Shown: positions 43,123 through 63,336, counted from the first letter of the stretch. The stretch is 63,336 nt of DNA from Chloroflexota bacterium (GCA_039933775.1 JBDTNK010000003.1:1-63336), one strand, 5' to 3'. Notes: generated by a model from the sequence alone, not told the origin. Made by a program: numbers and translations.

Positions 43123-45279
43123 TCAGGCGCGACCGGCGGCCGCCTCGTCGGATCGACGACGACCGGCCAGCCGGATGAGGTCCTCGTGAAGCTCGAACCA
43201 CACCCCGTGATAGCTGTCGACGCGTGGCGACGCGACGAAGCGCTGGTCACCACCGCGGGCGAGCTCCAGCGCTCGCTCCAGCCGCGATGCGTACGTCGCG
43301 AATCGATGCAGAACGTCCGCCGTCGGCGAGAGCCATGCGGCGGTCTCCGCATGCAGGGCGGCGAGGTCGTCCAGGACCCCTGCGTCGTACGCCGCGTCGG
43401 CATGATCGTTGATGGCCTGCGCACCGGCCACCTCGCGCACCTGCCAGGCCGTGACGATCTGCTTCATGCGCGTATCGAATCGGTGGAAGGCTTCGAGCAG
43501 CGCAGCGCTGGCCTCGTCGCCGATCTGGGCTCGATCGGCGGCCATGAGATCGAGACCTCGCAGCTTGCCCTCCGCCGACAGCCGCAGCGACCCGTCCCTT
43601 GACTCGACCAGCGCCTCGGCCGACAGCGCCTCCACGACGCCCGCCAGGCCGTCCGGCGCGACGAGGCGCGACTCCGCGAGCTGCTCGGGCGTCGCCGCGC
43701 CCTTGATCAGGAGGCCGCGCAGCAGATCGTCTCGGGATGCCGTGCCTTCAAGCGGCAGAGCAGTGGGGCCCGCATCGGCGGGGGCGCTCGAATCGTCGGT
43801 GCGCTGCTCGACCCGCGGCTCGATCCCCAGCTCCTGCGCCCAGGCGAGCAGGATCGCCGCCTCCGGCGCCACCTCGTCGCTGCCCTCCAGCCGGCCGGCG
43901 AAGACCTCGCCGGTCGAGCCGTCGATCGTCAGCTCCTCGCCGGCCGCGATGACCGTGCCCTCGATCTCGACGCTGTCGACACCGGGCCGCACGCCGGCGG
44001 CGCCAACCACGGCGGGAATGCCCCAGCCGCGCGCCACGACGGCGGCATGGCTGGCCAGGCCGCCCCGCGCGGTGAGCACGCCGGCGGCGCGCGACATGCC
44101 GCGCACGTCGTCGGGCGATGTCTCGGATCGAACCAGGATGACCGACCGCCCGGATTCAGCTACCGTCTCGGCAGCGTCGGACGAGGTGGCGATCACGCCC
44201 GTTGCCACGCCCGGCGAGGCGGGCAGGCCGCGCGCCAGCGGGGCGGGGACGCCGAGCGCCCGAACGAAGATGCGCGGTGGATGGGCCAGGTGCGCCGCGA
44301 CGCGCTCGACCGCTTCGGCACGCGAGCAGGCCATGCTCGGATCATCGGCCATGTCGATCGCGATCCGCAGCGCGGCGCGCGGGCTGCGCTTCCCGGCACG
44401 CACCTGGAGCAGCCACAGCCGGCCCTCCTCGATCGTGAACTCGATGTCGCACAGGTCGGCCACGTGCTGCTCGAGCGTCGCCGCGTGACGGTGGAGCTCG
44501 GCGGCGACATCCGGCAGGCGCTGCTCGAGGACCGCGATCGGCTGCGGCTGCTGACCGCCGGCCACGACGTCCTCGCCCTGCGCATCGAACATCACGTCGC
44601 CGTACGGGGTCGGCTCACCGGTGGATGGGTTGCGCGTGAAGAGCACCCCCGTGCCGGAGTTCGCGCCACGGTTGCCGAAGACCATGGCCTGCACCGTCAC
44701 CGCAGTGCCCAGGTCGTCGCTAATCTGCTCGCGCCGCCGGTAGGCACGCGCCCGCTCGCTGTTCCACGAGCGGAAGACCGCCTCGATCGCCGCGCGCAGC
44801 TGCTGCCAGGGATCGTCGGGCAGCGCGTCGGTGCCGATCACCGTCCGATATCCCTCGCGCAGGCGCCGCAGACAGTCGTCGGCGAATGCCGCGTCGCCGG
44901 TGGCCGCGGCGAGACCGGCGACCGATGCCTGGCTCAGGCCCAGGTCCAGGATCGTGTCCATCATGCCGGGCATGGAGACCGCGGCCCCCGACCTGACACT
45001 CACGAGCAACGGATCCTCGGGGTCGCCGAACCGATGTCCGACGCGCTCGCCGAGCCGCTCGATATGGTCGCGCAGCTCGTCGTCGAGCCCATCGGGCCAT
45101 TGGCCTTCCAGGAAGTGCGTGCTGGCCACGGTGGTGATGGTGAAGCCGGGCGGCACCGGCAGGCGAAGCTCGTTGGCCATGACGGCCAGGTTCGCCCCTT
45201 TGCCGCCCAGGAGCCGGGTCAGCTCTGCGTGCGAAAGCTCCGGCGGTGCGTCGAAGTCGTAGACGTAGCGGTTCGACAT
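43123..45279 (-). CDS. PPDK-like protein: ATP-grasp + phospho-His domain, no PEP/pyruvate TIM barrel, fused non-PPDK C-terminal domain
   Basis: LLGGKGANL, VPPGFTITT, VSVRSGAAVSMPGMMDT, VQAMVFGN, DIEFT, RGGLASHAAVVARGWG. About 200-aa tail ending DSYHGVWFELHEDL. Confidence 0.9.
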   Translation of the reverse strand: MSNRYVYDFDAPPELSHAELTRLLGGKGANLAVMANELRLPVPPGFTITTVASTHFLEGQWPDGLDDELRDHIERLGERVGHRFGDPEDPLLVSVRSGAAVSMPGMMDTILDLGLSQASVAGLAAATGDAAFADDCLRRLREGYRTVIGTDALPDDPWQQLRAAIEAVFRSWNSERARAYRRREQISDDLGTAVTVQAMVFGNRGANSGTGVLFTRNPSTGEPTPYGDVMFDAQGEDVVAGGQQPQPIAVLEQRLPDVAAELHRHAATLEQHVADLCDIEFTIEEGRLWLLQVRAGKRSPRAALRIAIDMADDPSMACSRAEAVERVAAHLAHPPRIFVRALGVPAPLARGLPASPGVATGVIATSSDAAETVAESGRSVILVRSETSPDDVRGMSRAAGVLTARGGLASHAAVVARGWGIPAVVGAAGVRPGVDSVEIEGTVIAAGEELTIDGSTGEVFAGRLEGSDEVAPEAAILLAWAQELGIEPRVEQRTDDSSAPADAGPTALPLEGTASRDDLLRGLLIKGAATPEQLAESRLVAPDGLAGVVEALSAEALVESRDGSLRLSAEGKLRGLDLMAADRAQIGDEASAALLEAFHRFDTRMKQIVTAWQVREVAGAQAINDHADAAYDAGVLDDLAALHAETAAWLSPTADVLHRFATYASRLERALELARGGDQRFVASPRVDSYHGVWFELHEDLIRLAGRRRSDEAAAGRA

Positions 45280-45344
45280 GTGCGTCTCAGATCGAAGGTT
45301 CAGCGGGTTTCCCGCCATCGGCCGATGCGGCTATGCTCCAGTAT

Positions 45345-45358
45345 GATCGATGATCGAT
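45345..45358. promoter_or_regulatory. Tandem GATCGAT x2 overlapping -10 TATGAT in the divergent dikinase promoter (candidate operator)
   Basis: Contains TCGATGATCGAT. An 11/12 copy (TCGATAATCGAT, minus strand) lies at 54309-54320. Confidence 0.45.
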
Positions 45359-45370
45359 ACTTGGGAGGTC

Positions 45371-47170
45371 ATGGCATTGCCTGTCGCTGCGGATGAGCCG
45401 ATCCTGGGCAAATTCCTCGGGAGCGGCGACTTTCCGATCGAATGGGCGTCCGACCAGGAACGGCAGCTGTTCTGGGTCTTCGACGACCTGCACTGCCCGC
45501 ACCCACTGAGCCCGATGTTCTACGAGATCGGCGGCTGGTGGCTGACCTGCGATCACATGTTCCGCCGCTTCGGGACGCCGTTTGCGTGCGACTGGATCAC
45601 CAAAAACGTCAACGGCTACCTCTACACCGCCGCCGTGCCGGCCGACCCTGCCCGGCAGGTCGACGCGATGGAGTACGGCGCCCGCTACGGCGCCCGCGTC
45701 CCGCTCGACCCCGAATACGGCGAGCGCATGGGTGCGTACCTCGACGCGGTGCTGCCGGTCTACGGCCAGCACTTCGCGGAGTGGTGGCGGGATCGGCTCG
45801 TCCCCGAGATGCAGGCCAACTTCGCCTTCCTGGAGCAGCGCCTCGAGCGCCAGGACGAGCTGTCGCTCATGGATCTGGCCGTCCTGTTCGAGGATGCGAT
45901 CGACATCCACGATCGGCACTGGAAGATCCACTGGATGCTGAACTTCTCGCAGCTCTCGGCGACGCTCAACCTGCGCGCGGTCATGGAGAAGACCCGCGGC
46001 ACGGTCGACGATGCGCTGCTCGGCCGGCTGCAGAACTCGGCGAACGACCGCAACTGGGACTCGATCCGGGCGCTCTGGGAGATGAAGGAGGAGGCGAAGG
46101 CCGACGGCGACCTCGCGACGGCCTTCAGCCACGACACCGCGGCCGAGATCATCGCCGCGCTCAAGCGGACCGAGCGCGGGGATCGGTTCATTGGCGAGCG
46201 GATCAAGCCGTACCAGCAGGAGTTCGGCTGGCACGCGGTCTGGAGCCACGAGTTCGTCTTCCCCACGGTCTACGAGAAGATGGAGCAGGTCGTGGAGCTG
46301 GTCCGCGGCTATGTCGAGAGTGACTACGACTATCCCGCCACGATCGGTGCGCTGAAAACCGATATCGAGGCCGCCTCACGGGAGATCCTGGATGGCCTCG
46401 ACGGCGAGGCGCTCGAGGAGATGCGCGCGGCGAACGAGATCAACCTGCAGATGGCACCGCTCACGCCGGACCACCACTTCTACATCGACCAGGGAGCGAA
46501 CGCACATCTGCGGCTGGTGCTCATCGCCATCGGCCGCAAGCTGGTGGCGGGCAAGGTGCTGGACCAGGCCGACGACGTGCTGTTCCTGCGCTACAACGAG
46601 CTGCGCGCCGTCATGGGCGATCCCGACGCCATCGAGGCGCGCTCCGTCGTCGCGCAACGCCGCGAAGCGCGCGAGGCGGCGTATGCCTTCCGGCCACCGG
46701 CATGGATCGGGACGGCCACCGAGAGCCAGCTCGCCTTCCCGTACCTGGTGAACTGGGGATTTCCCGAAAAGTTCTATCGCAAGGACGCGGTCGCGGGCGT
46801 GGTGGAGGGCATCGGTGGCTCCCCCGGCGTGGTCGAGGGGATCGCACGAGTCGTCCTGCGCGAGGATGAGTTCGATGCCGTCCGCGCCGGCGACATCCTG
46901 GTCTGCCACATGACGAATCCAGCTTGGGTCGTGCTCTTCACGAAGATCGCAGGCCTCGTCACGAACGCCGGCGGCCTGACCGGACATCCCGCGGTGCTCA
47001 GCCGCGAATTCGGCATCCCCGCCGTGGTCGGCACGCAGGACGGGACGCAGCGCATCAGCACCGGCGATCGCGTGCGCGTGGACGGGGCGACCGGCAGGGT
47101 CGAGGTCCTCGAGGCTGCGGGGAAGCCCCGTAACGACCTGTTCACGGTTCAGCCGCGGGCCGAGGCATGA
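45371..47170 (+). CDS. PEP-utilising-enzyme family: acceptor-binding domain + C-terminal phospho-His swivel domain, no ATP-grasp (phenylphosphate synthase A / RPH-like)
   Basis: SD GGGAGG before ATG 45371. FWVFDDLHCPHPLSP, NVNGYLY, DHHFYIDQ, GGSPGVVEGIARVV, LVCHMTNPAW, AGGLTGHPAVLSREFGIPAVVG. Confidence 0.88.
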   Translation: MALPVAADEPILGKFLGSGDFPIEWASDQERQLFWVFDDLHCPHPLSPMFYEIGGWWLTCDHMFRRFGTPFACDWITKNVNGYLYTAAVPADPARQVDAMEYGARYGARVPLDPEYGERMGAYLDAVLPVYGQHFAEWWRDRLVPEMQANFAFLEQRLERQDELSLMDLAVLFEDAIDIHDRHWKIHWMLNFSQLSATLNLRAVMEKTRGTVDDALLGRLQNSANDRNWDSIRALWEMKEEAKADGDLATAFSHDTAAEIIAALKRTERGDRFIGERIKPYQQEFGWHAVWSHEFVFPTVYEKMEQVVELVRGYVESDYDYPATIGALKTDIEAASREILDGLDGEALEEMRAANEINLQMAPLTPDHHFYIDQGANAHLRLVLIAIGRKLVAGKVLDQADDVLFLRYNELRAVMGDPDAIEARSVVAQRREAREAAYAFRPPAWIGTATESQLAFPYLVNWGFPEKFYRKDAVAGVVEGIGGSPGVVEGIARVVLREDEFDAVRAGDILVCHMTNPAWVVLFTKIAGLVTNAGGLTGHPAVLSREFGIPAVVGTQDGTQRISTGDRVRVDGATGRVEVLEAAGKPRNDLFTVQPRAEA

Positions 47171-47457
47171 CGTACGTGGTCACCGCCACGTGGCGTGCCC
47201 GCGAAGGCGAAGCCGAGCGCGTTCGCGAGATCCTCGAGGTGCTCACGCCTCTCTGCCGCGCCGAGCCCGGCTGCCGCCAATACCAGGCCCACCAATCGCT
47301 CGACGACCCGCGGCTCTTCTTCCTCTACGAGCAGTACGACGACGAGGCCGCGTTCCAGGCGCACGCGCAGACCGACCACGTCGAACGCCATGTCCGCGGC
47401 GATGCCGTGCCGCGGCTGGAGCTGCGCGAGCGCGCGATCTTCACGACGTTCGAGTGA
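47167..47457 (+). CDS. Antibiotic-biosynthesis-monooxygenase (ABM) family protein
   Basis: CRAEPGCRQY, FFLYEQYDDEAAFQAHAQTDH. ATGA overlap. Confidence 0.88.
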   Translation: MTYVVTATWRAREGEAERVREILEVLTPLCRAEPGCRQYQAHQSLDDPRLFFLYEQYDDEAAFQAHAQTDHVERHVRGDAVPRLELRERAIFTTFE

Positions 47458-48128
47458 TGCCTGACCTCAAGCAGCCCGCGGCCCCGCTCCCACGCAGCGT
47501 CCTTAGCGCCCAGGTCAAGGACAGGATGCTGCAGTGGGTCCTGCAGGGAGAGCTGGCACCGGGAGCGCGCATCATCGAGACGCGCATCGCACGACAGCTC
47601 GGGACGAGCCAGGCGCCGGTGCGCGAGGCGCTGCGCGACCTCGCGACGCTGGGATTGGTCGAGATGCACCCGTTCCGCGGGGCGCGCGTCCGCGAGCCCG
47701 CGCCCGACGAGCTCATCGAGGCTATGGAGCTGCGCGGCGAGCTCGAGGCGATCGCCGCGCGAAGCGCGGTGCTACGCATCGACGACGCCGGCCTGGCACG
47801 GATGCATGAGCTGCTCGACGAGATGCGCGCGAGCGCCGCCCGTGGTGACGCCCATGCGCAGGCGCTCCGCAACTCCGAGTTCCACTCCTGCATCATCAGC
47901 GCCTCCGGCAATCGGACCCTCCAGCGCCTGTGGTCGATGCTCGAGCCGTTCGCGCGCACCTACCTGACCGCCACGCTGCCGGGGGCCGACCTGCACTGGC
48001 TGGCCGAGCGCCACGTGGCCATCCTCGACGCCTTCACGGCCCGTGACCCGGAGCGCGCCGCCGAGACGATGCGGCTGCACGCCCGCGAGGCGCAGCGGCA
48101 GGTGCTCGAGCCGGACGAGACGGCCTAG
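47457..48128 (+). CDS. GntR-family regulator (FCD/FadR C-terminal domain)
   Basis: GELAPGARIIETRIARQLGTSQAPVREAL, NSEFH, GNRTL, H.AILDA...RD...A..MR.H. TGATG overlap. Confidence 0.92.
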   Translation: MPDLKQPAAPLPRSVLSAQVKDRMLQWVLQGELAPGARIIETRIARQLGTSQAPVREALRDLATLGLVEMHPFRGARVREPAPDELIEAMELRGELEAIAARSAVLRIDDAGLARMHELLDEMRASAARGDAHAQALRNSEFHSCIISASGNRTLQRLWSMLEPFARTYLTATLPGADLHWLAERHVAILDAFTARDPERAAETMRLHAREAQRQVLEPDETA

Positions 48129-48136: not shown

Positions 48137-49000
48137 ATGTTCGACTACGCGCGACCGAAAAGCCTGAACGAGACCTTCGCCCTGCTGCGGGAGATGCCCG
48201 ACGCCAGGCTCCTCAGCGGGGGAACCGACCTGCTGGTGAACCTGCGCGGGGGCCGGGCGGCGACGCCCCTGGTCATCGATCTCAAGCGGGTCGCCGATCT
48301 CGAGGCGGGCATCACCCAGCGCGAGGGCTGGTTGCGCGTCGGCGCCGGCACGGTCATGACCGATCTCGCCGCAGACGACCACGTTCGCGACCGCTTCCCG
48401 TCCCTGGTGGGAGCCGCTCTGGTGGTTGGCTCGGTCCAGATCCGCAATCGCGCCACGCTGGCGGGCAACGTGTGCAACGCCTCTCCCGCCGCCGACACGG
48501 CTCCCCCGCTGTTGATCCACGACGCCGTCGTCGAGCTTGCCGGCAGCGCGGGCCTGCGGCGCGTCGAGCTGAGCCAGTTCTTCCTGGGACCCGGCCGTAC
48601 CGCGCTCCAGCCCGGCGAGCTGGTTGCCGCGATCGAGCTGCCGATTCCCGGCGGGCCGCTCGGGACGGCGTTCGCGCGCATGACGCGCCGCCGCGGCGTC
48701 GACCTCGCCACGGTCAGCCTGTGCTGCTCCGTCTCGGCCACCGGCGTCACCAGATTCGCCTTTGGCGCCGTCGGCCCGCGGCCCTTCGGGGTGACCGATG
48801 ACACCGGCATCCTGGCCGACCCCGCCGGCGACCCGGCGCTGCAGGACGAGGCGCTGCGCCGCCTGACCGGCCACGCCAGCCCGCTCTCGAACGTGCGCGC
48901 CAGTCGCGAGTACCGCGAGGCGATGCTGCTGGTCCTCGGGCGTCGGGCGCTCGAAGCGGCCAGGCAACGGCTGCGGGAGGCGCACCTTGCCGGGACGTGA
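48137..49000 (+). CDS. Molybdenum hydroxylase FAD-binding subunit (CoxM/CutM-like)
   Basis: LSGGTDLL, VGSVQIRNRATLAGNVCNASPAAD, GELVAAI. Confidence 0.92.
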   Translation: MFDYARPKSLNETFALLREMPDARLLSGGTDLLVNLRGGRAATPLVIDLKRVADLEAGITQREGWLRVGAGTVMTDLAADDHVRDRFPSLVGAALVVGSVQIRNRATLAGNVCNASPAADTAPPLLIHDAVVELAGSAGLRRVELSQFFLGPGRTALQPGELVAAIELPIPGGPLGTAFARMTRRRGVDLATVSLCCSVSATGVTRFAFGAVGPRPFGVTDDTGILADPAGDPALQDEALRRLTGHASPLSNVRASREYREAMLLVLGRRALEAARQRLREAHLAGT

Positions 49001-49475
49001 GCTGCGTGTCGGGCTCGGCGTCAACGGCGAGCAACGCAACATCGAGGTGTCGGTGGAGCAGACGCTGCTCGAGGTGCTGCGCGACCAGGTCGGACTCACC
49101 GGAACCAAGGAATGTTGCGCCGTCGGCGAATGCGGCGCCTGCACCGTCATGCTCGACGGCCGCGCGGTTAACTCATGCCTGGTGCTGGCAGTCGAGGCCG
49201 ATGGCGCGCAGGTCACGACGATCGAGGGGCTGACAGCGCGTGACGGCCTGAGCCCGCTGCAGGATGCGTTCGTGAGGCATGGTGCCGTCCAATGCGGATT
49301 CTGCACGCCGGGAATGGTCGTCGCCGCGCACGCGCTGCTGACCACCACGCTGCGGCCGACGATGGCCGAGATTCGCGAGGGCCTGTCGGGGAATCTCTGC
49401 CGCTGCGGCTGCTACAACCAGATCTGCGACGCGGTGGCCGAGGTCGCCGGCCTCGTGGCCGCGCCCGCGCGATGA
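48987..49475 (+). CDS. Molybdenum hydroxylase 2x[2Fe-2S] subunit (CoxS-like)
   Basis: TGTKECCAVGECGACTV, VNSCL, QCGFCTPG, NLCRCGCY. Confidence 0.95.
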   Translation: MPGRELRVGLGVNGEQRNIEVSVEQTLLEVLRDQVGLTGTKECCAVGECGACTVMLDGRAVNSCLVLAVEADGAQVTTIEGLTARDGLSPLQDAFVRHGAVQCGFCTPGMVVAAHALLTTTLRPTMAEIREGLSGNLCRCGCYNQICDAVAEVAGLVAAPAR

Positions 49476-51715: not shown

Positions 51716-52594
51716 GGCCGGCAGCGGCGTCGGGACCCGACGTCGAGCTTCGAAGCGCAGGTACTCGGTGTAACCCGCGCGCCGCGCAGCCGCCACGACG
51801 ACCTCGTAGCCGAGCGCCGCGTCGTCCGCCACGTGGGCGTCGCTGGCGAGCGTGATCGGCACCCCGGCCGCACGGAACCGCGCCAGGAAGCTCGGCGCGG
51901 GGTAGAGGCGCTGGACCCGGTGCCGCAGCCCGGCGCTCGACACCTCGATCGCCGTCCCACTTCGCGCAGCTGCCGCGACCACCGGACCGTACAGGTGGCC
52001 GAGGTCCCCGCCGGGCTGCAGCGCGTGGCGGGCAATGACGTCGGCGTGGGCCAGCACATCCACGAGCCCCGATCCGGCGAGCGCCGCCTCGAGCTCGAAG
52101 TACTGCGCGAAGGCCCGCTCGGTGCCCCGGCGCTCGTACTCGGCCCGGGCGCTGTCGCGCATGAAGTTCCAGGCACCGATCCAGTGGATCGAGCCGACGA
52201 GGTAGTCGAACGGGATGCCGGCCAGCAGGTCGAGCACCGCGACCTCGGTGCCGGGCACGAAATCGACCTCGAGGCCGAGCTTGACGGGCAGGCCGCGTGC
52301 CTTCGCGTCCAGCACGACCTCCACGTAGCGCGCCAGCGACAGGTTCCGCTCCGTGCCGATCCAGGCTGCCAGGTCCGCTCGAAGCCGCGCGTCGGGGTCG
52401 CGCTCCCACCATCGACCAAGAACCGGGATCGACTCGCGGCACCGATAGAGGTGCTCGGTGAAGCCGAGCTCGGTCACGCCGCGCGCCGCCGCCGCCTCCA
52501 TGTATCGGTCGATCCAACCATCGGGGTAGACCCCCATCGGTGGCGCGCCGGGCACCGGGCGGTGGGGATGGAGGTGAAGGTGGTAGTCGCTCAT
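51701..52594 (-). CDS. PHP-domain phosphatase, HisJ (histidinol-phosphatase) family
   Basis: DYHLH, GFTEH, GLEVDF, DYLVGSIHW, LAH.D, EVSSAGLR, TLASDAH. Confidence 0.88.
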   Translation of the reverse strand: MSDYHLHLHPHRPVPGAPPMGVYPDGWIDRYMEAAAARGVTELGFTEHLYRCRESIPVLGRWWERDPDARLRADLAAWIGTERNLSLARYVEVVLDAKARGLPVKLGLEVDFVPGTEVAVLDLLAGIPFDYLVGSIHWIGAWNFMRDSARAEYERRGTERAFAQYFELEAALAGSGLVDVLAHADVIARHALQPGGDLGHLYGPVVAAAARSGTAIEVSSAGLRHRVQRLYPAPSFLARFRAAGVPITLASDAHVADDAALGYEVVVAAARRAGYTEYLRFEARRRVPTPLPALPTS

Positions 52595-54374: not shown

Positions 54375-54388
54375 AGCAAACCTTTACT
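54375..54388. promoter_or_regulatory. LacI-type operator candidate AGCAAACCTTTACT upstream of the GMC operon
   Basis: Imperfect palindrome (5 of 7 pairs) resembling the LacI-family A..AAACGTTT..T shape. A LacI gene lies in the downstream operon. Confidence 0.45.
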
Positions 54389-54468
54389 GTACGGTTGGTC
54401 GCACTCGGCGCCCGGCGTTCCGTCGCCGGGCGGGTGCCCGGAACCGTCCCCTGCGAAAGGAGCCAACC

Positions 54469-56082: not shown

Positions 56083-56702
56083 GCGAGTCCGGGGCGCCGA
56101 CCGACACGACCGGCGGCATGCCCGCGACGACATCGCGCGCTCCCCTCCAGGGGGCAGATGCCGCGCCCGGGACCGACCCGCTGATTCACCTCGATGCCGG
56201 TGCCCGGCAGCGTTTCGCCGCGATCGCCGAGCGGCTCATCCCGGAGGCACACGGGATGCCGTCGGCGGCCGAGATCGTCGGCGAGGTCCGCCTGCGTTTC
56301 GTGCTGCGGGCGCGACCCGATCTCGTCGAGCCGCTCGTGGCGGCGCTTCGGCCCGAGCTCGGAGACGATCCCGGGGAACGTCTCGAGGCGCTCGGGCGCG
56401 ACGAGGCGACCGAGCTCGCCGCGCTGCAGCTGGCGATCGTGGGCGGCTACTACACCGACCGCCGCGTCCGGCAGCTGATCGGTTATCCGGGCCAGATGGC
56501 CATCGAGGTCAGGTCGTGGGAGGTCCCGCCCTACCTGGAGGAGGGCCTCATCGACGCCGTGCTGGCGCGCGGCGCGGTGTGGCGCGATCCTGAGACCGGC
56601 ACCACGGCGGTCGTCGACGCGGCGCCGCGGACCTATGCAGAGCGATACGGGTCGACCGAAGGGCGCCCGGAAGGAGGAGACAATGGTAGCGACGGCTCCT
56701 GA
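56079..56702 (+). CDS. Gluconate-2-dehydrogenase subunit-3-like partner of the GMC enzyme
   Basis: ATGA overlap. IAERLIP...MPSA, GGYYT...V..LIGYPG. Function inferred from motif and position. Confidence 0.65.
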   Translation: MSESGAPTDTTGGMPATTSRAPLQGADAAPGTDPLIHLDAGARQRFAAIAERLIPEAHGMPSAAEIVGEVRLRFVLRARPDLVEPLVAALRPELGDDPGERLEALGRDEATELAALQLAIVGGYYTDRRVRQLIGYPGQMAIEVRSWEVPPYLEEGLIDAVLARGAVWRDPETGTTAVVDAAPRTYAERYGSTEGRPEGGDNGSDGS

Positions 56703-58170
56703 ATCGACGTCGGAGCGCGGCGCGCCCGGCTGGCTCGACGGCTTCCTGGCCGACTGGCACCCCGGCTCGGGCGAGGCCCGCGAGGTCCGCGAGCCGGCGA
56801 CCGGGCGTCTCCTGCTGACCATGCAGCAATCGACGGTCGAGGACGTCCGTCGCGCAGCCGCGGCGGCGGCCGCGGCGCAGCCGGCCTGGGCGCAGACCAA
56901 CTACCAGGAGCGCGCCGCTATCCTGCGCCGAGCGGCCGACATCTACGAGGCGCACCGCCCCGAGTTCGGCACCTGGACGCAGCGCGAGACCGGCGCCCAT
57001 TACAACAAGATGTATCACGAGGCGAACTTCACCGCGCAGGAGCTGCTGGCCGCCGCATCGATGCCCTCGCAGCCGCTCGGATCGGTCCTGCCGTCCGCGC
57101 AGCAGGAGCGGCTCTCGATCGTGCGGCGCGTGCCGATCGGGGTGGTCGGGGCGATCACGCCGTGGAACTCGCCGAGCGTCCTGGGGATGCGGGTGGTGGC
57201 CCCGGCCCTCGCGCTCGGCAACGCAGTCGTGCTCAAGCCGGACCCGCAGACGCCGGTCTGCGGGGCGGCCGTGTTCGCGGCGATCTTCCGCGAGGCGGGG
57301 CTGCCCGACGGGCTGCTCCAGATCGTCATCGGCGACGCGGAGGTCGGCGAGGCGCTGGTCACCGATCCCAACGTGCACATGGTCTCGTTCACCGGCTCCA
57401 CCGAGGCGGGGCGCCGCGTCGGGTCGCTGGCCGGCGGGCTGCTCAAGAAGGTCTCGCTGGAGCTCGGCGGCAACAACGCCTTCGTGGTCACCGACGATGC
57501 CGACCTCGAAGCGGCGGCATCGGCCGGAGCATACGGAACGTTCCAGTTCCAGGGGCAGGTCTGCTTCGCCGTCGGCCGCCACATCGTGCATCGCTCCGTG
57601 GCCGACGCGTACGTCGACCTGCTGGCAGCCAAGGCAAAGCGCCTCCGCCTGGGCGACCCGTATCGAACCGACGTGGACCTTGGTCCGATCGTCAACGAGC
57701 AGCAGCTGGCGCGCGTCGACTCGATCGTGCAGCGCTCGATCCAGGGCGGTGCGCGGCTGGCCGAGGGCGGCACGCACGAGGGCCTCTTCTACCGGCCCAC
57801 CGTGCTGGCCGACGTGACGACCGACCTTCCGGCATGGACCGATGAGACCTTCGGTCCGGTTGCCCCGATCATCACCTTCGACTCCGACGAGGAGGCGATC
57901 GCACTGGCGAACGCGAGCGAGTACGGGCTGGCAGGTGCCGTCTACTCGCGCTCCATCGCGCGCGGCCTGGCGATCGCGAACCGCATCAAGGCGGGCATGG
58001 TCCACGTCAACGACCAGACCGTCAACGACGAGGCGATCGTCCCGTTCGGCGGCACCGGCATGTCGGGCAACGGCGGGCGCTTCGGCGGGGAGGCGAACTA
58101 CGACACCTTCACGGAGTGGCAGTGGCTCACCGTCCGTGACGAGCCCAAGTCCTTCCCGCATCCGTACTGA
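56683..58170 (+). CDS. Aldehyde dehydrogenase (benzaldehyde/vanillin dehydrogenase-like)
   Basis: SD AGGAGG. ITPWNSP, LKPDPQTP, FTGST, LELGGNN, QGQVC (catalytic Cys), ETFGPV, PFGG.GMSG. Confidence 0.93.
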   Translation: MVATAPESTSERGAPGWLDGFLADWHPGSGEAREVREPATGRLLLTMQQSTVEDVRRAAAAAAAAQPAWAQTNYQERAAILRRAADIYEAHRPEFGTWTQRETGAHYNKMYHEANFTAQELLAAASMPSQPLGSVLPSAQQERLSIVRRVPIGVVGAITPWNSPSVLGMRVVAPALALGNAVVLKPDPQTPVCGAAVFAAIFREAGLPDGLLQIVIGDAEVGEALVTDPNVHMVSFTGSTEAGRRVGSLAGGLLKKVSLELGGNNAFVVTDDADLEAAASAGAYGTFQFQGQVCFAVGRHIVHRSVADAYVDLLAAKAKRLRLGDPYRTDVDLGPIVNEQQLARVDSIVQRSIQGGARLAEGGTHEGLFYRPTVLADVTTDLPAWTDETFGPVAPIITFDSDEEAIALANASEYGLAGAVYSRSIARGLAIANRIKAGMVHVNDQTVNDEAIVPFGGTGMSGNGGRFGGEANYDTFTEWQWLTVRDEPKSFPHPY

Positions 58171-58177: not shown

Positions 58178-59221
58178 GTGGCGTCGATGACCGAGGTCGC
58201 GCGGCGAGCAGGCGTCTCGATCGCGACGGCCTCGCGCGTCATCGGCGCGACCGACTACCCGGTCAGCCTGGCGACCCGGACGCGAGTGCTCGAGGCCGCG
58301 CGCGCGCTCGATTACGTCCCGAACGCCCTCGCCCGCGGGCTCCTGAAGAGCCAGATCGCGGTCGTGGGCGTGGTCGTCCACGACATCACCGACCCGTATT
58401 TCTCCGAGGTGGTGCGTGGCGTCGAGGATGCCGCCGCGCCCGACGGCTACCTGGTCATCGCCTGCAGCTCGGACCGAAGCTCCGAGCGCGAACGCTCGTA
58501 TGTCCGTCTGCTGCGTTCGATGCGGGCCGCCGCGGTGATCTTCGCCGGCAGCGGGATCGATGATCCCGTGGCGAACGAGGAGCTGGGACGCCACCTGGCC
58601 GGCATTCGTGAGAACGGATCGGCGGTGGTGCACCTGTCGCCGCATGCCTTCGGGGCGCCGCAGGTCGGCGTCGACAACCCGGCCGGCATCGCGGCCATGG
58701 TCGCCGCGCTCGCTGCGCTCGGCCACCGGCAGATCGCCTTCATCGCCGGCCCCACGGCGCTCTACGTCGCGTCAGAGCGGCTGGCCGGGTATCGGCGCGG
58801 CGTGGCAGCCACGGGGATCGGTGCCGAACCGCGCCTCATCGTGCACGCCAGCTTCGATCGCGGCGGCGGTGCCGCGGGCGTGGACGCGCTGCTGGCCGGC
58901 GGCGCGCCGTTCACCGCCATCTGCTGCGCGAACGACGTGCAGGCGCTGGGCGCGCTGCAGCGCCTCGCCGAGCTCGGGCTCCGCGTGCCCGACGACGTCT
59001 CGGTCGCCGGCTTCGACGACATCTCGGTGGCGGCCCTGACGGCGCCGGCCCTGTCGACGGTGCAGCTGCCCCTGCGCGAGCTGGGACGGCGCGGGTTCGC
59101 CCACGCTGTTCGGCAGCTGGCCGGCGAGACGCTCGCTCCCGAGCTGCTGCCGACACAGGTCGTCATTCGAGGCTCCATCGGTCCACCGCGAGTAGTCATG
59201 ACAAGAGGAGGCAGGGCGTGA
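58178..59221 (+). CDS. LacI-family transcriptional regulator
   Basis: SMTEVARRAGVSIATASRV, YVPNALARGL, TAICCANDVQALG, VPDDVSVAGFDD, LSTV. Confidence 0.93.
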   Translation: MASMTEVARRAGVSIATASRVIGATDYPVSLATRTRVLEAARALDYVPNALARGLLKSQIAVVGVVVHDITDPYFSEVVRGVEDAAAPDGYLVIACSSDRSSERERSYVRLLRSMRAAAVIFAGSGIDDPVANEELGRHLAGIRENGSAVVHLSPHAFGAPQVGVDNPAGIAAMVAALAALGHRQIAFIAGPTALYVASERLAGYRRGVAATGIGAEPRLIVHASFDRGGGAAGVDALLAGGAPFTAICCANDVQALGALQRLAELGLRVPDDVSVAGFDDISVAALTAPALSTVQLPLRELGRRGFAHAVRQLAGETLAPELLPTQVVIRGSIGPPRVVMTRGGRA

Positions 59222-60006
59222 AGCCGGCGACGGTATTCCTGGGAGAGATGACGAACCCCGAGGTGGAGGCCTTTCTGCGAGACCACCGCACGGTCATCGT
59301 GCCGACGGGGTCCACCGAGCAGCACGGGCCGCACGGGCCGCTGCTGACCGACGTGCTGGTGCCGCAGGAGGTGGCGCGCCGCATCGCCCCGGCGGTCGGC
59401 GCGCTCGTGGCGCCACCGATCAACTACGCGCTCTCCTACCCGCACGTCGGGTTCACCGGGGTGGTCCACATCCGGATCCCGACCTTCATGGCGCTCGTCG
59501 AGGACGTGTGCGTCTCGCTCGCGGCCGCGGGCTTCCGCCGGATCGTGTTCCTCAACGGTCACTACGACAACACCTACGCCATCGCCTACGCCTGCGCGAA
59601 CGCTCGCGAGCGTCTGCCTGCCGATGCGGTCGCCTTTCCGATCAACTACTGGGACGGCATGAGCCCCGAGGAGGCCGGCGAGTTCTTCGGTCCATCGACC
59701 GGCCTGCACGCCAACCGCGGCGAGACCTCCGCGGTGCTGGCCATCAACCCCGATCTCGTCGACATGGAGCACGCGAACGCCGAGATGCCGCCGTTTCCGC
59801 CGGTCACGAGCAGCCCACCGGTGCATACCGCCTTCTTCTTCTCGGCGCCCGGATCGGTGCATCGCGCATCCGCGTCGGGCACTTGGGGCGATGCGCGCGA
59901 GTCGACGCCCGAATTCGGCGAGCGCTACCTCGAGGTCGTCAGCCGCGCGACGATTCGGATCCTGGACGACATCGACCGCACCTTCGAGGCGATGCCGCCG
60001 CGCTGA
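59218..60006 (+). CDS. Creatininase-family amidohydrolase
   Basis: PTGSTEQHGPHGPL.TD, YALSYPH, LNGHYDN, HANRGETS, GTWGD. Confidence 0.92.
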   Translation: MKPATVFLGEMTNPEVEAFLRDHRTVIVPTGSTEQHGPHGPLLTDVLVPQEVARRIAPAVGALVAPPINYALSYPHVGFTGVVHIRIPTFMALVEDVCVSLAAAGFRRIVFLNGHYDNTYAIAYACANARERLPADAVAFPINYWDGMSPEEAGEFFGPSTGLHANRGETSAVLAINPDLVDMEHANAEMPPFPPVTSSPPVHTAFFFSAPGSVHRASASGTWGDARESTPEFGERYLEVVSRATIRILDDIDRTFEAMPPR

Positions 60007-60030: not shown

Positions 60031-60765
60031 TCAGGCGGAAGCGACCTCGACGTCGAAGCGGACGTTCATCGCGTAGCGGTCGCCGCCATAGCGTGACTCG
60101 GTCACCTCGATCGGGCGGCCCTGGGCGTCCAGGATGACGCGTCGCTCGACGAGGATCGGCGAGCCCTTCGGCACCTCGAGCAGCCGGGCATCGTCGGCGG
60201 TGGCCGGCACGGCGTTCACGATTGCGGTTCCCCGGCGCAGAATCCAGCCTGCCCGGACGAGCGCGGCGTGAAGCGAGTCGTGGCGCAGGTCGGCGGCCAT
60301 GACGGCAGGGGACGTCTCGCCGATGAGGACCGTCGTCTCCAGCGCGATCGGCACCTCGTCGGCGCAGCGCACTCGCCGCAGATAGACGATCGCCGCGCCT
60401 TCCGGGACGTCGAGCTCGGTCGCGATCAGGCGCGGGGCGGGCCGGATCTCGCGGTTGACGATACGCGAGGTCGGCCTGCGGCCGCGACGCGCCATCTCGG
60501 AGGTGAAGCTCATGAGCCGATCCGCGCGCCGGTGCGTGGCTGGCTCGGCCACGAAGCTGCCGCGGCCGGGCAGCCGCACCACGAGCCCCTCGTCGGCGAG
60601 CAGCTGCATCGCGCTGCGGGCGGTCATTCTGCTCACGCCGAACTCGGCACACAGGGCGGTATCCGACGGCAGCGCGTCACCCGGGCGCAGCGTGGCGATG
60701 CGCTCGCGCAGCGACTGCTCGATGGTGCGGTATCGCGGGATGGCGAGATCCGTCACTGCCCCCAC
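60031..60765 (-). CDS. GntR-family regulator, HutC/UTRA subfamily
   Basis: LPSDTALCAEFGVSRMTAR, PGRGSFV, LMSFTSEM, RVRCAD..PIALE, IEVTESRY.GDRY. Confidence 0.92.
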   Translation of the reverse strand: MGAVTDLAIPRYRTIEQSLRERIATLRPGDALPSDTALCAEFGVSRMTARSAMQLLADEGLVVRLPGRGSFVAEPATHRRADRLMSFTSEMARRGRRPTSRIVNREIRPAPRLIATELDVPEGAAIVYLRRVRCADEVPIALETTVLIGETSPAVMAADLRHDSLHAALVRAGWILRRGTAIVNAVPATADDARLLEVPKGSPILVERRVILDAQGRPIEVTESRYGGDRYAMNVRFDVEVASA

Positions 60766-60829: not shown

Positions 60830-61819
60830 TCAGGACTCCCCGGTGACGCGCGTGTAGGCGGCAGCCACGACCACGATGATCGCGCCGAACAGGATCTGGC
60901 GGCTGGGCTCGGGAAGTCCCAGGACGGTGAGCAGGGCGGTGAGCACGGTCAGGATCAGGGCGCCGACGATGGCCCCGCCGTAGCTGCCGCGTCCGCCGAA
61001 GATCGATGTGCCGCCGATGACCGCCGCCGCGACCGAGGGCAGCAAATAGGACTCCGCGAGCGACACGCTGGCCGTGTTCGTCAGCCCCGAGACGAGGAGA
61101 CCGGCGATCCCCGCCAGGACCGCCGAGATGACGTAGAGGGTGATGAGGACCTGCCACCCCCGGACCCCGGAGAGCCTGGCGGCGACCGGGTTGTCGCCGA
61201 TCGCATACAGCAGTCGTCCATAGCCGGTGCGACGCAGGCCGAGCAGGATCACCAGGGCCAGCGGCACGAAGATGATGAGGCTGTACGGGAGGATGCCGAA
61301 GAGGCTGCCGGAGCCGATCCAGCGCAGCTCGTCGGGCACGCCAGACCCGGTCTGCACCGTCTGCAGCTGCCAGACGTTGGCGAGCCCCAGAACCACGAAG
61401 CTCATGCCCAGCGTCATGATCAATGGGTGCACCTTGAAGACGCCGACCCCGATGCCGGTCACCAGGCCCGCCAGCGCCGCCGCGACGAGGGCCACGCCGA
61501 TCGCGAACGGCAGTCCGCCGGGGCTGTTGACGAGTGTCGCGGTTACGAAGCCGGCCATCGACGCGACGGTCCCCACCGAAAGGTCGATGCCCGCGGTGAG
61601 CATCGTCAGGGTCTGGCACGCGGCCAAGATCGCCAGCGGCACCGATGCCCGCAGGATGACGCCCGCCCAGCCCGGACCGACGATCCCCGGGCGCACCACC
61701 TCGATGATCAGGACCAGCAGCGCAAGCAGCCCGATGAGCGGGATGATCGGCCGGTCGCGGAGGAGAGCGCGCCAGGGCGGCACACTGAGCTGGGAACGGG
61801 CTGGCGCGACCGTGCTCAC
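60830..61819 (-). CDS. Sugar ABC transporter permease (RbsC-like)
   Basis: LTAGIDLSVG, PLIMTLG, GRLLYAIGDN..AARLSG, VAAAVIGGTSIFGGRG. GTGA overlap. Confidence 0.93.
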   Translation of the reverse strand: MSTVAPARSQLSVPPWRALLRDRPIIPLIGLLALLVLIIEVVRPGIVGPGWAGVILRASVPLAILAACQTLTMLTAGIDLSVGTVASMAGFVTATLVNSPGGLPFAIGVALVAAALAGLVTGIGVGVFKVHPLIMTLGMSFVVLGLANVWQLQTVQTGSGVPDELRWIGSGSLFGILPYSLIIFVPLALVILLGLRRTGYGRLLYAIGDNPVAARLSGVRGWQVLITLYVISAVLAGIAGLLVSGLTNTASVSLAESYLLPSVAAAVIGGTSIFGGRGSYGGAIVGALILTVLTALLTVLGLPEPSRQILFGAIIVVVAAAYTRVTGES

Positions 61820-62820
61820 CCGCGCGCCCGCCGCAGCTCGATCAGGCTGCCCACCATGACGACGACGATGAGGATGATGCCCTGCGAGACCACGGCCAGG
61901 TTGGTGTTGACCCGCAGGAATGTCATATCGGTCCTGATCAGCTGCAGCACCACCACCGCCACGATGGGCCCGAAGACGCCGCCGCGGCCACCGGCCAGGC
62001 TGACGCCACCGAGGACGACCGCCGCGACGCTCATCAGGGTGTAGGGCCCCGGCACCGGCGTGCCGATCCCCGTGCTGGCGGTGAGCGAGAGACCGCCGAG
62101 CGCGGCGAAGAGGCCCGCCAGCATGTAGGCGAAGACCTTCGTCCATCCGATCGAGATCCCGCTCCGGAACGCCGCCAGCGGGTTGCTGCCCACGGCGTAC
62201 AGCGACAGTCCGGCCCGGGTCCGCATCAGCGGCAGCCAGATGATCCCCACCATGACGACCAGGACCACCGCCGCGCGGGGCAGCCAATCGAACACGAGGG
62301 AGCCGCTGACAAGCTCCCGTAGCCAGGGCGCCGCGCTGCCGCCGGGTGCCGACCGCACGATGAGGGCAACACCGGCCCAGACGAAGAGCATGGCGAGCGT
62401 GACGACGATGTCGGGCACCCTGGTGACCACGACCACGATGCCGTTGATCGCGCCGATCACCAGGCCGAGCACGAGCACGCCGACGACCACCACGATGGCG
62501 AACTCGGGGCTCTGGCCCTCCATCAGCGTCGCCGAGATGACGCTGGTCAGTGCCATGACCGAGCCGATCGAGAGGTCGATGCCGCCCGCAATCACGACCA
62601 CGGCCTGCGCGACCGCCGCGAGGGCGAGCGGAAAGACCGAGATGGCGAGGCCCTGGATCCCGGCGATCCCGTACCTCGGCTGGATGACCCTGGTGAAGAC
62701 AAGGAAGAAGATGAGCAGACCGATGAGCCCCAACGTCCAGGCGTTGCGCCGGGCCCATCCGGCTACGGCGTCAGCCCACTGTGCGCGTGATGCCGAGCGC
62801 GCCCCGGCAACGACGCTCAC
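61816..62820 (-). CDS. Sugar ABC transporter permease (RbsC-like)
   Basis: IAGGIDLSIG, PDIVVTL, LYAVGSN..AA..SG, VAAVVLGGVSLAGGRG. Confidence 0.93.
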   Translation of the reverse strand: MSVVAGARSASRAQWADAVAGWARRNAWTLGLIGLLIFFLVFTRVIQPRYGIAGIQGLAISVFPLALAAVAQAVVVIAGGIDLSIGSVMALTSVISATLMEGQSPEFAIVVVVGVLVLGLVIGAINGIVVVVTRVPDIVVTLAMLFVWAGVALIVRSAPGGSAAPWLRELVSGSLVFDWLPRAAVVLVVMVGIIWLPLMRTRAGLSLYAVGSNPLAAFRSGISIGWTKVFAYMLAGLFAALGGLSLTASTGIGTPVPGPYTLMSVAAVVLGGVSLAGGRGGVFGPIVAVVVLQLIRTDMTFLRVNTNLAVVSQGIILIVVVMVGSLIELRRARG

Positions 62821-63336
62821 AGCGCCGCTCCTGCGCCCACGGTCGCCGCTGCCACGGCGCTCGGCTCCAGGTTGTGCGCCGCGCGCAGCAGCGCCGGCTC
62901 ATCCGCGTCCGCTGCCTCGATTTCGTCGACGATCTGCCCGCCGAAGATCACGATGGCCCGGTCACAGGCGAGCTGGATCTCCTTGAGCTCCGACGTATAG
63001 AAGAGGACCGATGCGCCCGCCTCGGCCAGGTCGCGCAGGAGATGGTAGATCTGGCTCTTGGTGCGAATGTCGATGCCCCGCGTCGGGTCGAAGCAGAGCA
63101 TGGTCTGCACACCGCCCGCGACCCAGCGCCCGATCGTCACCTTCTGCTGGTTGCCGCCGGAGAGGCGACGCACCTCGTTGCCCGCCCGCGCATCGATCTG
63201 CAGCATGCGGACCGCCTCCGCGATCCGGCCCTGCTCGGCTCGGGTGTCGATGAGGCCCCACGAACGAAGGCGCGCGCTGACCGGCAGGGCGATGTTCTCG
63301 CGCACCGAGCGCTGCATCAGGAGCGCCTCGGCCCGG
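62817..63336 (-). CDS. Sugar ABC transporter ATP-binding protein (RbsA-like), C-terminal part; runs off the window edge
   Basis: SVRENI, LSGGNQQKV, PTRGID, SSEL-like YTSELKEI..CDR. Confidence 0.9.
   Translation of the reverse strand, partial: RAEALLMQRSVRENIALPVSARLRSWGLIDTRAEQGRIAEAVRMLQIDARAGNEVRRLSGGNQQKVTIGRWVAGGVQTMLCFDPTRGIDIRTKSQIYHLLRDLAEAGASVLFYTSELKEIQLACDRAIVIFGGQIVDEIEAADADEPALLRAAHNLEPSAVAAATVGAGAAL

Follow-up and report, generated by a model that had tools for sequence, protein, structure and literature searches.

Two groups of described systems come closest to the locus considered here, a catabolic gene island at positions 43123-63336 of a contig of 63,336 nucleotides from an uncultured soil Chloroflexota bacterium of the class Ca. 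Limnocylindria. The first is the 3hpd cluster of Ensifer adhaerens HP1, whose molybdenum (Mo) hydroxylase HpdA1-4 turns 3-hydroxypyridine into 2,5-dihydroxypyridine. Two adjacent genes, orf9 (pyruvate-phosphate dikinase) and orf10 (phosphoenolpyruvate (PEP)-utilizing mobile subunit), are required for the hydroxylation in this strain, where knocking out either stops growth, and the enzyme is inactive without HpdA3, a separate SRPBCC subunit. A GntR regulator and an ABC transporter that is induced by the substrate belong to the cluster too, and related clusters have been reported in Actinobacteria, Rubrobacteria and Thermoleophilia (bioRxiv 10.1101/2020.01.08.898148). The second group comprises the two-component dikinases of phenolic compounds: PpsAB of Thauera, CreHI of Corynebacterium glutamicum, HpeHI of Rhodococcus rhodochrous GD02 and AcvAB of Sphingobium SYK-6. 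Here the ATP-grasp protein presents ATP, the swivel histidine of the large subunit is pyrophosphorylated, and the beta-phosphate is passed to the phenolic hydroxyl; later enzymes of the pathways take the phospho-form only, and a phosphatase (CreD, HpeD) then removes the group (PMC12167813, PMC9618137).

The island groups together three modules, L (43.1-54.3 kb), R1 and R2, each with its own regulator gene or genes, and in module L genes for a dikinase and for a Mo hydroxylase stand side by side. Mo hydroxylases are ATP-independent enzymes, and the need for a dikinase in one branch of them has a single genetic precedent, that of 3-hydroxypyridine in Ensifer. Module L is a new variant of this genetically known, mechanistically unexplained system, and the whole island matches no characterised pathway. 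The initial annotation of this DNA, which described a 20-kb catabolic island mixing sugar and aromatic or N-heterocycle chemistry, had stated that no described pathway has such a set of genes; this holds for the island as a whole but not for its left third, which matches the 3hpd pairing and the two-component phenolic dikinases (PMC12167813). A literature search for the mechanism of dikinase-dependent hydroxylases found no newer work.

The window, that is, the whole stretch of DNA analysed, is the entire contig C3 of an assembly of 2.29 Mb in 125 contigs (87% complete), and the closest public genomes are mostly soil metagenome-assembled genomes (MAGs). The G+C content of the DNA is about 70%, and genes were picked by third-position G+C and reading frame and then scanned against Pfam and NCBIfam. 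The last 55 bases of C3 are identical to the first 55 bases of contig C43, the sole such join in the assembly, and the ATPase open reading frame that runs across it is an intact 510 amino acids long; the right border therefore lies beyond the end of the window. The whole island is about 27 kb long, contains four regulator genes and extends about 6.7 kb onto C43. Of the 20-kb extent first proposed, the left border at 43.1 kb stands and the right one has moved. Five transcription units are found in 43123-63336 (Table 1). All gene families named in the initial annotation were recovered by the Pfam and NCBIfam scans; its list had omitted a metallo-beta-lactamase-fold (MBL) hydrolase and the small partner of the GMC dehydrogenase. 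Its three regulators (FCD-GntR, LacI and UTRA-GntR) are joined by a fourth, of the ROK family, on C43, where the binding protein that it expected just outside the window was also found.

Putative split dikinase and molybdenum hydroxylase of module L

The PpsA-like dikinase was correctly assigned to its family, but it is a product of two genes, G1 and G2, rather than one. G1 (731 amino acids) is a truncated protein resembling pyruvate-phosphate dikinase (PPDK), with an ATP-grasp domain, a swivel phosphohistidine domain of its own (GGLASHAAV) and a tail of about 230 amino acids that has no Pfam match. The PEP/pyruvate barrel is absent from G1, the PPDK chains of the PDB aligning to residues 150-497 only. 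In G2 a helical acceptor domain precedes the swivel histidine (GGLTGHPAV) at the C-terminal end, and the likely start of the protein is at 45371, after the Shine-Dalgarno sequence GGGAGG, rather than at 45350. The catalytic histidine is kept in both proteins. No short ATP-grasp gene is present in the island. A structure of G2 predicted with AlphaFold2 from 31 sequences reached medium confidence (pLDDT 68, pTM 0.71). The six best fold matches of this model in the PDB are all rifampin phosphotransferase (RPH), with E from 7e-16 to 2e-11 over about 600-657 columns, and at E below 1e-10 the search returned RPH chains only, with TM up to 0.61 (normalised to G2). On this model G2 is predicted to carry the acceptor and swivel fold of RPH.

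RPH-Lm (5FBS/5FBT/5FBU/5HV1) is thus the only strong fold match of G2 and has the same swivel-histidine chemistry; it differs in being one chain with its own ATP-grasp domain, in sharing only about 18% identity with G2, and in serving antibiotic inactivation rather than catabolism. The RPH fold has likewise been reported for HpeH (PMC12167813, PMC9618137). G2 resembles PpsAB, CreHI and HpeHI in its rifampin-binding-like acceptor domain, followed by a swivel histidine near the C terminus. The phenolic dikinases have Ser or Cys before the histidine, whereas G2 has Gly (GGLTGHPA), and they feed a carboxylase or a P450, whereas the dikinase of module L would feed a Mo hydroxylase.

Several minor observations concern the two dikinase genes. 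G1 has an alternative start at 45279 (MSNRYVYDF, the usual PPDK N-terminus) in place of 45318, with which the divergent control region would grow from 52 to about 90 bases. The assembly contains a second PPDK-like gene (C5, 41134-42726) with 43% identity to G1 in a frame of about 936 amino acids, probably encoding a full-length enzyme, and a further RPH-type swivel-domain protein (C98, 4422-5024) with 37-39% identity to the C-terminal third of G2. PF27448 stands in the precomputed domain lists of all close G2 relatives and was not reported for G2 by the local Pfam scan; the acceptor domain of G2 relatives may have a recent family entry in PF27448.

The plus-strand run of G2, ABM, FCD-GntR and the three Mo-hydroxylase genes has overlapping stops and starts, ABM being joined to G2 by an ATGA overlap. 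For the FAD subunit of the hydroxylase all NCBIfam equivalogs were below cut-off. The closest PDB chain to the Mo subunit is 1rm6_A, the alpha chain of 4-hydroxybenzoyl-CoA reductase (4-HBCR), at 293 bits, and the 4-HBCR alpha model gives 425 bits against a cut-off of 995. Like the enzyme of module L, 4-HBCR of Thauera aromatica (1RM6) is built of three subunits. Its FAD subunit has an extra [4Fe-4S] loop, for which the FAD subunit of 287 amino acids found here has no room, and module L has no CoA ligase. The C-terminal motif GTGESG of the Mo subunit was seen in the alignment, and its Glu is presumably the conserved active-site Glu. The identity of xanthine dehydrogenase was tried for the enzyme and rejected, as all scores were under their cut-offs (XdhA 444 against 780, XdhB 179 against 310, XdhC 178 against 217) and the closest structure was 4-HBCR.

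On the opposite strand, genes for a short-chain dehydrogenase (SDR), the MBL hydrolase and a PHP-family phosphatase form an operon with intergenic gaps of 13 and 16 bases. The PHP protein scores 197.8 bits with NF005596, just under the cut-off of 202. A housekeeping role as histidinol-phosphate phosphatase (HisJ/HisK) was rejected: the gene is single-copy in the assembly and has orthologues in just 2 of 61 related genomes, in both cases inside the island. The PHP phosphatase is island-specific and not a housekeeping enzyme. It is the candidate for removing a phosphate tag by analogy with the phenolic-dikinase pathways, and a dedicated phosphatase in the same regulon fits a cycle of phosphorylation, transformation and dephosphorylation. 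The MBL hydrolase, whose best PDB match reaches only 60 bits, is at family level a putative lactonase, esterase or phosphoesterase. This arrangement does not agree with the division into sugar-side and aglycone-side genes in the initial annotation: the SDR sits with MBL and PHP in the dikinase/Mo regulon, and GMC, aldehyde dehydrogenase (ALDH) and creatininase belong to one translationally coupled, LacI-containing operon.

Where the two L operons converge, the Mo-subunit and PHP genes overlap tail to tail by 15 bases. A G+C-rich hairpin at 51725-51745 (CGGCGTCGGG / CCCGACGTCG, with 1 base between the arms) lies just 3' of the Mo-subunit stop, within the 3' end of the converging PHP gene, and may be the terminator of the Mo operon.

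In gene content module L resembles 3hpd. Genes for Mo, FAD and 2Fe-2S subunits adjoin one PPDK-like and one PEP-utilizing gene in both, and the island, like the Ensifer cluster, has a GntR regulator and an ABC transporter. By this likeness we regard module L as the Limnocylindria version of the dikinase-dependent hydroxylase of 3hpd. There are differences also. The Ensifer cluster contains the maleamate-pathway genes (hpdBCDE) and this island does not: none of the corresponding families (2,5-dihydroxypyridine dioxygenase, deformylase, amidase, isomerase) was found among the island genes, the rest of the genome not having been searched. SDR, MBL, PHP and ABM are extra here, and the importer is of the CUT2 sugar type.

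A related locus in a cultured organism of the Chloroflexota group is found on the megaplasmid of Thermomicrobium roseum DSM 5159 (NC_011961.1, about 56-72 kb). It encodes a G2 homologue (49% identity) with an adjacent ABM protein, along with a GntR regulator, an ABC transporter and the subunits of a Mo hydroxylase, whose Mo subunit is 37% identical to the one here. It differs in its short ATP-grasp partner of 323 amino acids, with 32% identity to the N-terminal part of G1, in the presence of cyclase, FAH, Tm-1-like and PEP-hydrolase-like genes and a Liv-type ABC transporter, and in having no R1 or R2 genes. A hypothetical protein of 205 amino acids encoded beside the T. roseum ATP-grasp gene was compared with the tail of G1, and no similarity was seen.

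We infer every catalytic step, and the phosphate-tag logic of module L, by analogy with 3hpd, CreHI and HpeHI. G1 and G2 would act as a split dikinase (ATP to AMP and Pi via phosphohistidine) that phosphorylates a ring hydroxyl. The Mo hydroxylase would then add a water-derived oxygen to the phospho-form, at the position adjacent to the ring nitrogen or at the one para to the oxygen that carries the tag, PHP would remove the phosphate tag, and SDR, MBL hydrolase and ABM would process the product. The sequence of phosphorylation, transformation and dephosphorylation may thus match that of PpsAB, CreHI and HpeHI, with PHP as the possible phosphatase.

It is also conceivable, and in our view unlikely, that the target of the dikinase lies in the hydroxylase system: it would phosphorylate a protein, a cofactor or some partner in electron transfer, or run a His-to-His relay with a different final acceptor, so that ATP drives or switches on the Mo enzyme. 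The swivel histidine of G1, superfluous for a simple PpsB- or HpeI-type partner, would find a use in such a scheme, and the 3hpd study saw no product besides 2,5-dihydroxypyridine (bioRxiv 10.1101/2020.01.08.898148). An orphan P-loop protein of about 295 amino acids (GGESNHGKT, no Pfam match) might also belong to it; of the 44 loci of relatives, 32 have its gene between those for GntR and the Mo hydroxylase. The 87%-complete assembly as a whole lacks this protein, however, as do the loci of the closest relatives, and the protein is therefore dispensable here and not obligatory for the dikinase/Mo system. G2 moreover has the full RPH acceptor-domain fold in the predicted structure, its characterised relatives all phosphorylate small molecules, and an island-specific phosphatase is present, all of which argue for a small-molecule acceptor. 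A natural version without the P-loop protein narrows the minimal set of parts.

Shared palindrome and conservation of module L

A palindrome of the form TCGAT-N-ATCGA occurs at both L promoter regions, in the G1/G2 and the SDR/GMC divergent regions. It was spotted by eye and then tested by pattern counts; an inverted-repeat search of the promoter regions returned no match. Exact ATCGATNATCGA sites number two only in the window. Sites of the form TCGATNATCGA number 8 in the 2.29-Mb assembly (0.035 per 10 kb) against 110 in 80 loci of relatives (0.81 per 10 kb), so that its density in the dikinase loci of relatives is about 23 times that of the whole genome studied here. The 1-kb stretches upstream of G2 account for 26 sites in the full-length loci of relatives. 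The related genome G006 has two palindromes at the same two places, and sites 5' of SDR are also found in three others (G007, G010, G040). The extended consensus is ATaATCGAT-k-ATCGAtga. Among the relatives (loci L035-L114) the palindrome also precedes G1, SDR, Zn-ADH, cupin and DUF1097 genes. Because the palindrome is shared by the L promoters and enriched in the loci of relatives, module L is probably one regulon. FCD-GntR is the predicted binder of the L palindrome, ATAATCGATKATCGATGAT, and as a repressor on ATAATCGAT-K-ATCGATGAT it would control both L promoters. A candidate LacI-type box upstream of GMC is a block conserved in G006; it stays weak, since no second copy was found in the island.

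Relatives of G2 are encoded in 593 candidate stretches of a species-level genome collection, and G2 orthologues with 65-84% identity were found in 10 of 60 relatives. Conservation of module L was counted by tblastn with the island proteins in 44 full-length loci, each extending 10 kb on either side of G2. G1 stands beside G2 in 40 of these, and the three Mo subunits are present in 40-43. FCD-GntR follows in 34, MBL in 24, SDR in 23, ABM in 8 and PHP in 6. Across genera the order and orientation of the L genes vary while gene membership is kept. The clustering of the island genes is non-random, the same genes being found together in dozens of related genomes, which bears out the description of the region as a conserved catabolic island.

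Modules R1 and R2, their co-occurrence with module L and the candidate substrates

The R1 genes are joined by ATGA, 20-base and GTGA overlaps, the last of these between LacI and creatininase, except for ALDH and LacI, which are 7 bases apart; the ALDH start follows the Shine-Dalgarno sequence GGAAGGAGGAG. The GMC protein is closest in the PDB to the catalytic subunit of FAD-glucose dehydrogenase and the large subunit of fructose dehydrogenase (about 240 bits), and like these has a small partner. The partner here has no twin-arginine signal and no Pfam or NCBIfam match, there is no cytochrome subunit, and a gene for 183 amino acids at the same position in relatives encodes a protein 66% identical to it. 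Among named PDB chains the ALDH finds its best matches in 4-hydroxybenzaldehyde (356 bits), benzaldehyde, salicylaldehyde and vanillin dehydrogenases, in keeping with its earlier description as benzaldehyde-dehydrogenase-like. For LacI the best model is CytR (217 bits against a cut-off of 436). The creatininase-family protein gives 93 bits with the creatininase of the PDB and stays below all equivalogs (TIGR04448 132 against 235, MftE 103 against 172, IolN 92 against 245). Creatinine amidohydrolase proper was rejected as its identity, the protein belonging to the Pfam family and missing the TIGR04448 cut-off.

In three long-contig relatives R1 is a longer co-directional run of 11-12 genes, in the order GMC, small subunit, ALDH, LacI, (DapA-like), SDR, CoA-transferase, crotonase, luciferase-like oxidoreductase, shikimate-dehydrogenase-like, FAH and creatininase, which converges on an R2-type operon. 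In this genome the block from CoA-transferase to FAH is found on contig C53 (9266-13242), and a LacI paralogue (62% identity) and a DapA-like gene on C120. In this lineage the long R1 operon has therefore apparently been broken up. The middle block of R1 is missing from G006 as well.

Module R2 contains the set of a CUT2 (ribose-type) importer: two BPD_transp_2 permeases, a fused double ATPase and a Peripla_BP_4-type lipoprotein binding protein. Relatives have this set too, again with a binding protein of the Peripla_BP_4 family. The importer reaches no equivalog cut-off, and its binding protein (C43, 1140-2273) is only distantly like binders of the ribose/galactofuranose type. On C43 the module continues with the N-terminal part of the ATPase, the binding protein, a deoxyribose-phosphate aldolase (DeoC), an AP_endonuc_2 TIM barrel and a Gfo/Idh/MocA protein, followed by the divergent ROK regulator. 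DeoC scores 232.7 bits with TIGR00126 (cut-off 117.3) and has two weaker paralogues elsewhere in the assembly. In relatives R2 comprises (amidohydrolase), UTRA-GntR, ROK, two permeases, ATPase, binding protein, SIS, DeoC, TIM barrel and Gfo/Idh/MocA. The best model of the Gfo/Idh/MocA protein is levoglucosan dehydrogenase, and with the adjacent AP_endonuc_2 TIM barrel this recalls the 3-keto routes of the LgdA/LgdB type; the difference from such oxidative sugar routes is that the score is far under the cut-off (162 bits against 650) and only one TIM-barrel gene is present.

The distribution of the modules was determined in a single fixed set of 301 class genomes, searched with four proteins (G2, GMC, creatininase and the R2 binding protein). 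The GMC count leaves out one paralogue of 57%, and for the binding protein a threshold of at least 62% identity was used. G2 has orthologues in 68 genomes, GMC in 38, creatininase in 39 and the binding protein in 51. GMC is accompanied by G2 in 36 genomes (GMC only 2, G2 only 32, neither 231; odds ratio 130), creatininase in 35 (creatininase only 4, G2 only 33, neither 229; odds ratio 61) and the binding protein in 48 (binding protein only 3, G2 only 20, neither 230; odds ratio 184). GMC and creatininase occur together in 36 genomes (GMC only 2, creatininase only 3, neither 260; odds ratio 1560). R1 and R2 are nested within L-bearing genomes, as is expected if they depend on L. The initial annotation had considered that its sub-operons might be independent modules that do not occur together in other genomes; they do occur together, since R1 and R2 are nested with L and 22 of 24 same-contig pairs of G2 and creatininase lie 11-33 kb apart (median 22 kb). 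The spacing is the same in 31 further long-contig genomes. Module L is present in about one fifth of the sampled Limnocylindria, a common uncultured soil class, so that its substrate is likely to be a compound common in soils or plants.

The most probable reading, to which we give an even chance, is by analogy that all three modules work on a single substrate family, namely aromatic or N-heteroaromatic compounds with a hydroxylated ring, which may be taken up in a sugar-like conjugate. A glycoside or nucleoside is a possible substrate. The gene identities, the operon structure, the conserved operator-like site, the contig join and the co-occurrence and proximity of the genes across genomes are observed; we infer likewise the pairings of regulators with sites and the common action of the three modules on one compound. 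The CUT2 importer would take up the compound and module L would act on its ring. A cytoplasmic GMC dehydrogenase with its small subunit, and then the aromatic-type ALDH, would convert a side-chain alcohol to the acid, after which the creatininase-family hydrolase would open a ring, at a cyclic amide or a C-C bond. The Gfo/Idh/MocA protein, the TIM barrel and DeoC would dispose of the sugar-like part. The importer and the predicted pair of operator and regulator, tied to the system by co-occurrence, offer routes to the natural substrate.

A number of points weigh against this reading. As to the dikinase, the phenolic dikinases use a stand-alone ATP-grasp protein of about 40 kDa without a swivel domain, whereas G1 is a truncated PPDK with its own histidine and tail. 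The SRPBCC fourth subunit of HpdA is missing here, no SRPBCC/CoxG-type family having been matched among the island open reading frames in the Pfam scans of all called genes. The 3hpd study detected no phosphorylated intermediate and left the role of orf9 and orf10 unexplained (bioRxiv 10.1101/2020.01.08.898148). As to the substrate, the window contains no glycosidase or ring-cleavage dioxygenase, and in relatives the L palindrome is also found 5' of transaldolase and split transketolase genes, which fits a sugar-phosphate product better than an aromatic one. As to the unity of the island, every module comes with a regulator gene of its own, and the L palindrome is not shared by the three modules and is missing from three right-module loci of relatives (L116-L118), so that the modules may answer different inducers. 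Module R2 resembles an ordinary self-contained sugar or cyclitol operon. Among the 68 G2-positive genomes, 17 have the binding protein without R1, and 15 have neither the binding protein nor GMC, L being self-sufficient there. Finally, the 301 genomes are related, so that the co-occurrence counts are not independent events, and physical linkage alone can give joint gain and loss.

A juxtaposition of independent pathways is a less probable explanation that nevertheless has to be taken seriously. Module L alone would then act on a hydroxylated (hetero)aromatic, R1 would be the remnant of a LacI-containing operon for alicyclic or hydroaromatic acids, R2 would take up a sugar or cyclitol, and the neighbourhood would collect catabolic genes that are gained and lost en bloc. 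The separate regulator genes and the absence of the L operator from L116-L118 agree with this, as do the usual sugar-operon content of R2, the self-contained look of the 11-12-gene R1 run in relatives and the occurrence of L without R1 in 32 of the 68 genomes (in 15 of these cases also without the binding protein). Independent pathways do not readily explain why R1 and R2 are so rarely found without L (2 of 38 and 3 of 51 genomes) when L is present in just 68 of 301. Both G2 and creatininase are kept in G146 and G317, where they lie 1.7-1.9 Mb apart. Within one genus (g2) the distribution is patchy, yet the modules vary together, some genomes having all modules and others none.

Two specific classes of substrate can also be considered. 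The first is vitamin B6 (pyridoxine, pyridoxal, 4-pyridoxate or a glucoside). The B6 pathway of Mesorhizobium loti uses the GMC, SDR, MBL and ALDH families, and the proteins of the island would correspondingly be an alcohol oxidase (GMC), a pyridoxal dehydrogenase (SDR), a pyridoxolactonase (MBL) and an enzyme for the formyl group (ALDH), with the dikinase and the Mo hydroxylase attacking C6, the only free ring carbon of the 3-hydroxypyridine of B6. The only genetically studied relative of module L does act on 3-hydroxypyridine, and a model named 'putative B6 ABC transporter' is weakly matched by the ATPase fragment (59.9 bits; cut-off 670). At the level of orthology, however, the B6-like heterocycle put forward in the initial annotation finds no support: the MBL protein gives 32.8 bits with the 4-pyridoxolactonase model (NF047925; cut-off 325), and there is no pyridoxine 4-oxidase or 4-pyridoxolactonase entry among the PDB sequence matches of GMC and MBL. 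Genes of the decarboxylase, MHPC-oxygenase or AAMS-amidohydrolase types are not present, and roughly half of the L loci lack SDR and MBL. A B6 degradation route is therefore very improbable.

The second class is that of nucleosides or purines, for which the ribose-type importer, the CytR-like LacI protein and a DeoC acting on (deoxy)ribose would be suited, the Mo enzyme being a xanthine dehydrogenase. DeoC does score above its equivalog cut-off, the best LacI model is CytR, the best NCBIfam models of the Mo-hydroxylase subunits are Xdh, and the binding protein is nearest to the ribose/galactofuranose type. The Xdh scores are nevertheless far under their cut-offs, with 4-HBCR as the closest structure, xanthine dehydrogenases need no dikinase, and no nucleoside phosphorylase, hydrolase, phosphopentomutase or urate-pathway gene is present in the island. 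We hold this alternative to be highly unlikely.

A bolder reading would see in the island a complete and naturally minimal cassette that tags, hydroxylates and untags. It would consist of a His-relay dikinase, with a PPDK-type donor and an RPH-type acceptor, whose phosphate is a traceless activating group and lets the Mo hydroxylase attack with water a hydroxy-N-heteroaromatic ring that would otherwise not react; of PHP as the dedicated phosphatase; and of a sugar-type importer with 3-keto-sugar enzymes, by which the natural substrate would be delivered as a glycoside or a conjugate resembling a nucleoside, such as a B6 glucoside from plants or another conjugate of a related 3-hydroxypyridine. 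This combination is speculative and we rate it as improbable; were it true, the absence of the P-loop protein would show G1, G2 and the Mo enzyme to be sufficient.

Coordinates of the features and minor observations

The positions of the genes and control sites are given in Table 1.

Table 1. Genes and candidate control sites of the island within the window (positions counted from the first base of the contig)
Feature	Position	Strand	Matches and remarks
G1, truncated PPDK-like (PPDK-N-type) protein	43123-45318	-	PF01326 158.8 bits; PF00391 79.8 bits; NF004531 500 bits vs cut-off 456
Operator-like palindrome ATCGATGATCGAT	45346-45358		G1/G2 divergent intergenic region, directly 5' of G2 ribosome-binding site
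G2, putative acceptor/phosphate-carrying subunit of split dikinase (PpsA/CreH/HpeH-like)	45371-47170	+	PF00391 (residues 512-582 of 606); NF006153 (full length); RPH model (residues 390-587)
ABM-family protein (cofactor-less monooxygenase-like)	47167-47457	+	PF03992 75.9 bits
FCD-type GntR regulator	47454-48128	+	PF07729 88.6 bits; PF00392 51.8 bits
Mo hydroxylase FAD subunit, 287 amino acids	48137-49000	+	PF00941 159 bits; PF03450 46 bits
Mo hydroxylase 2x[2Fe-2S] subunit	48987-49475	+	PF01799 103 bits; PF00111 32 bits
Mo hydroxylase molybdopterin subunit (XDH/CODH/4-HBCR family)	49472-51715	+	PF02738; PF20256; PF01315
PHP-family phosphatase	51701-52609	-	PF02811; final gene of SDR-MBL-PHP operon
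MBL-fold hydrolase	52626-53492	-	PF00753 86.4 bits
SDR oxidoreductase (gluconate-5-dehydrogenase/KduD-like, family level)	53506-54302	-	PF13561 195 bits; NF006070 219 bits vs cut-off 279; opens SDR-MBL-PHP operon
Second operator-like palindrome ATCGATTATCGAG	54309-54321		SDR/GMC divergent region, 6 bases 5' of SDR start
Candidate LacI-type box TAGCAAACCTTTACTG, weak	54374-54389		about 80 bases upstream of GMC
GMC flavoprotein dehydrogenase	54469-56082	+	PF00732; PF05199; opens operon R1
Small GMC partner, 207 amino acids	56079-56702	+	ATGA overlap with GMC
ALDH, aromatic-aldehyde clade	56683-58170	+	PF00171 516 bits
LacI-family regulator (CytR/RbsR-like, family level)	58178-59221	+	PF00356; PF13377; PF00532
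Creatininase-family metal hydrolase	59218-60006	+	PF02633 213.6 bits; final gene of R1
UTRA-type (HutC-subfamily) GntR regulator	60031-60765	-	PF07702 121 bits; PF00392 68.5 bits; final gene of operon R2
CUT2-type ABC permease	60830-61819	-	PF02653 116 bits; RbsC 129 vs cut-off 398
Second CUT2-type ABC permease	61816-62820	-	PF02653 104 bits
Double ABC ATPase, C-terminal 172 amino acids	62817-63336	-	AraG/RbsA-type matches; continues on C43

The genes upstream of the left border (37-43 kb), which encode an LCP protein, a sugar transferase, an ECF sigma factor and an MFS transporter, do not accompany the island in relatives (tblastn, 44 full-length loci). No riboswitch or other known RNA that could betray the ligand was found between 42000 and 63336 at E up to 0.1. 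Some loci of relatives contain stop codons or fragmented calls in genes that are otherwise conserved, for example in the G2 matches of L045 and L053 and in the GMC, ALDH and CoA-transferase genes of L117. These breaks look like the indel errors of long-read MAGs rather than gene decay.

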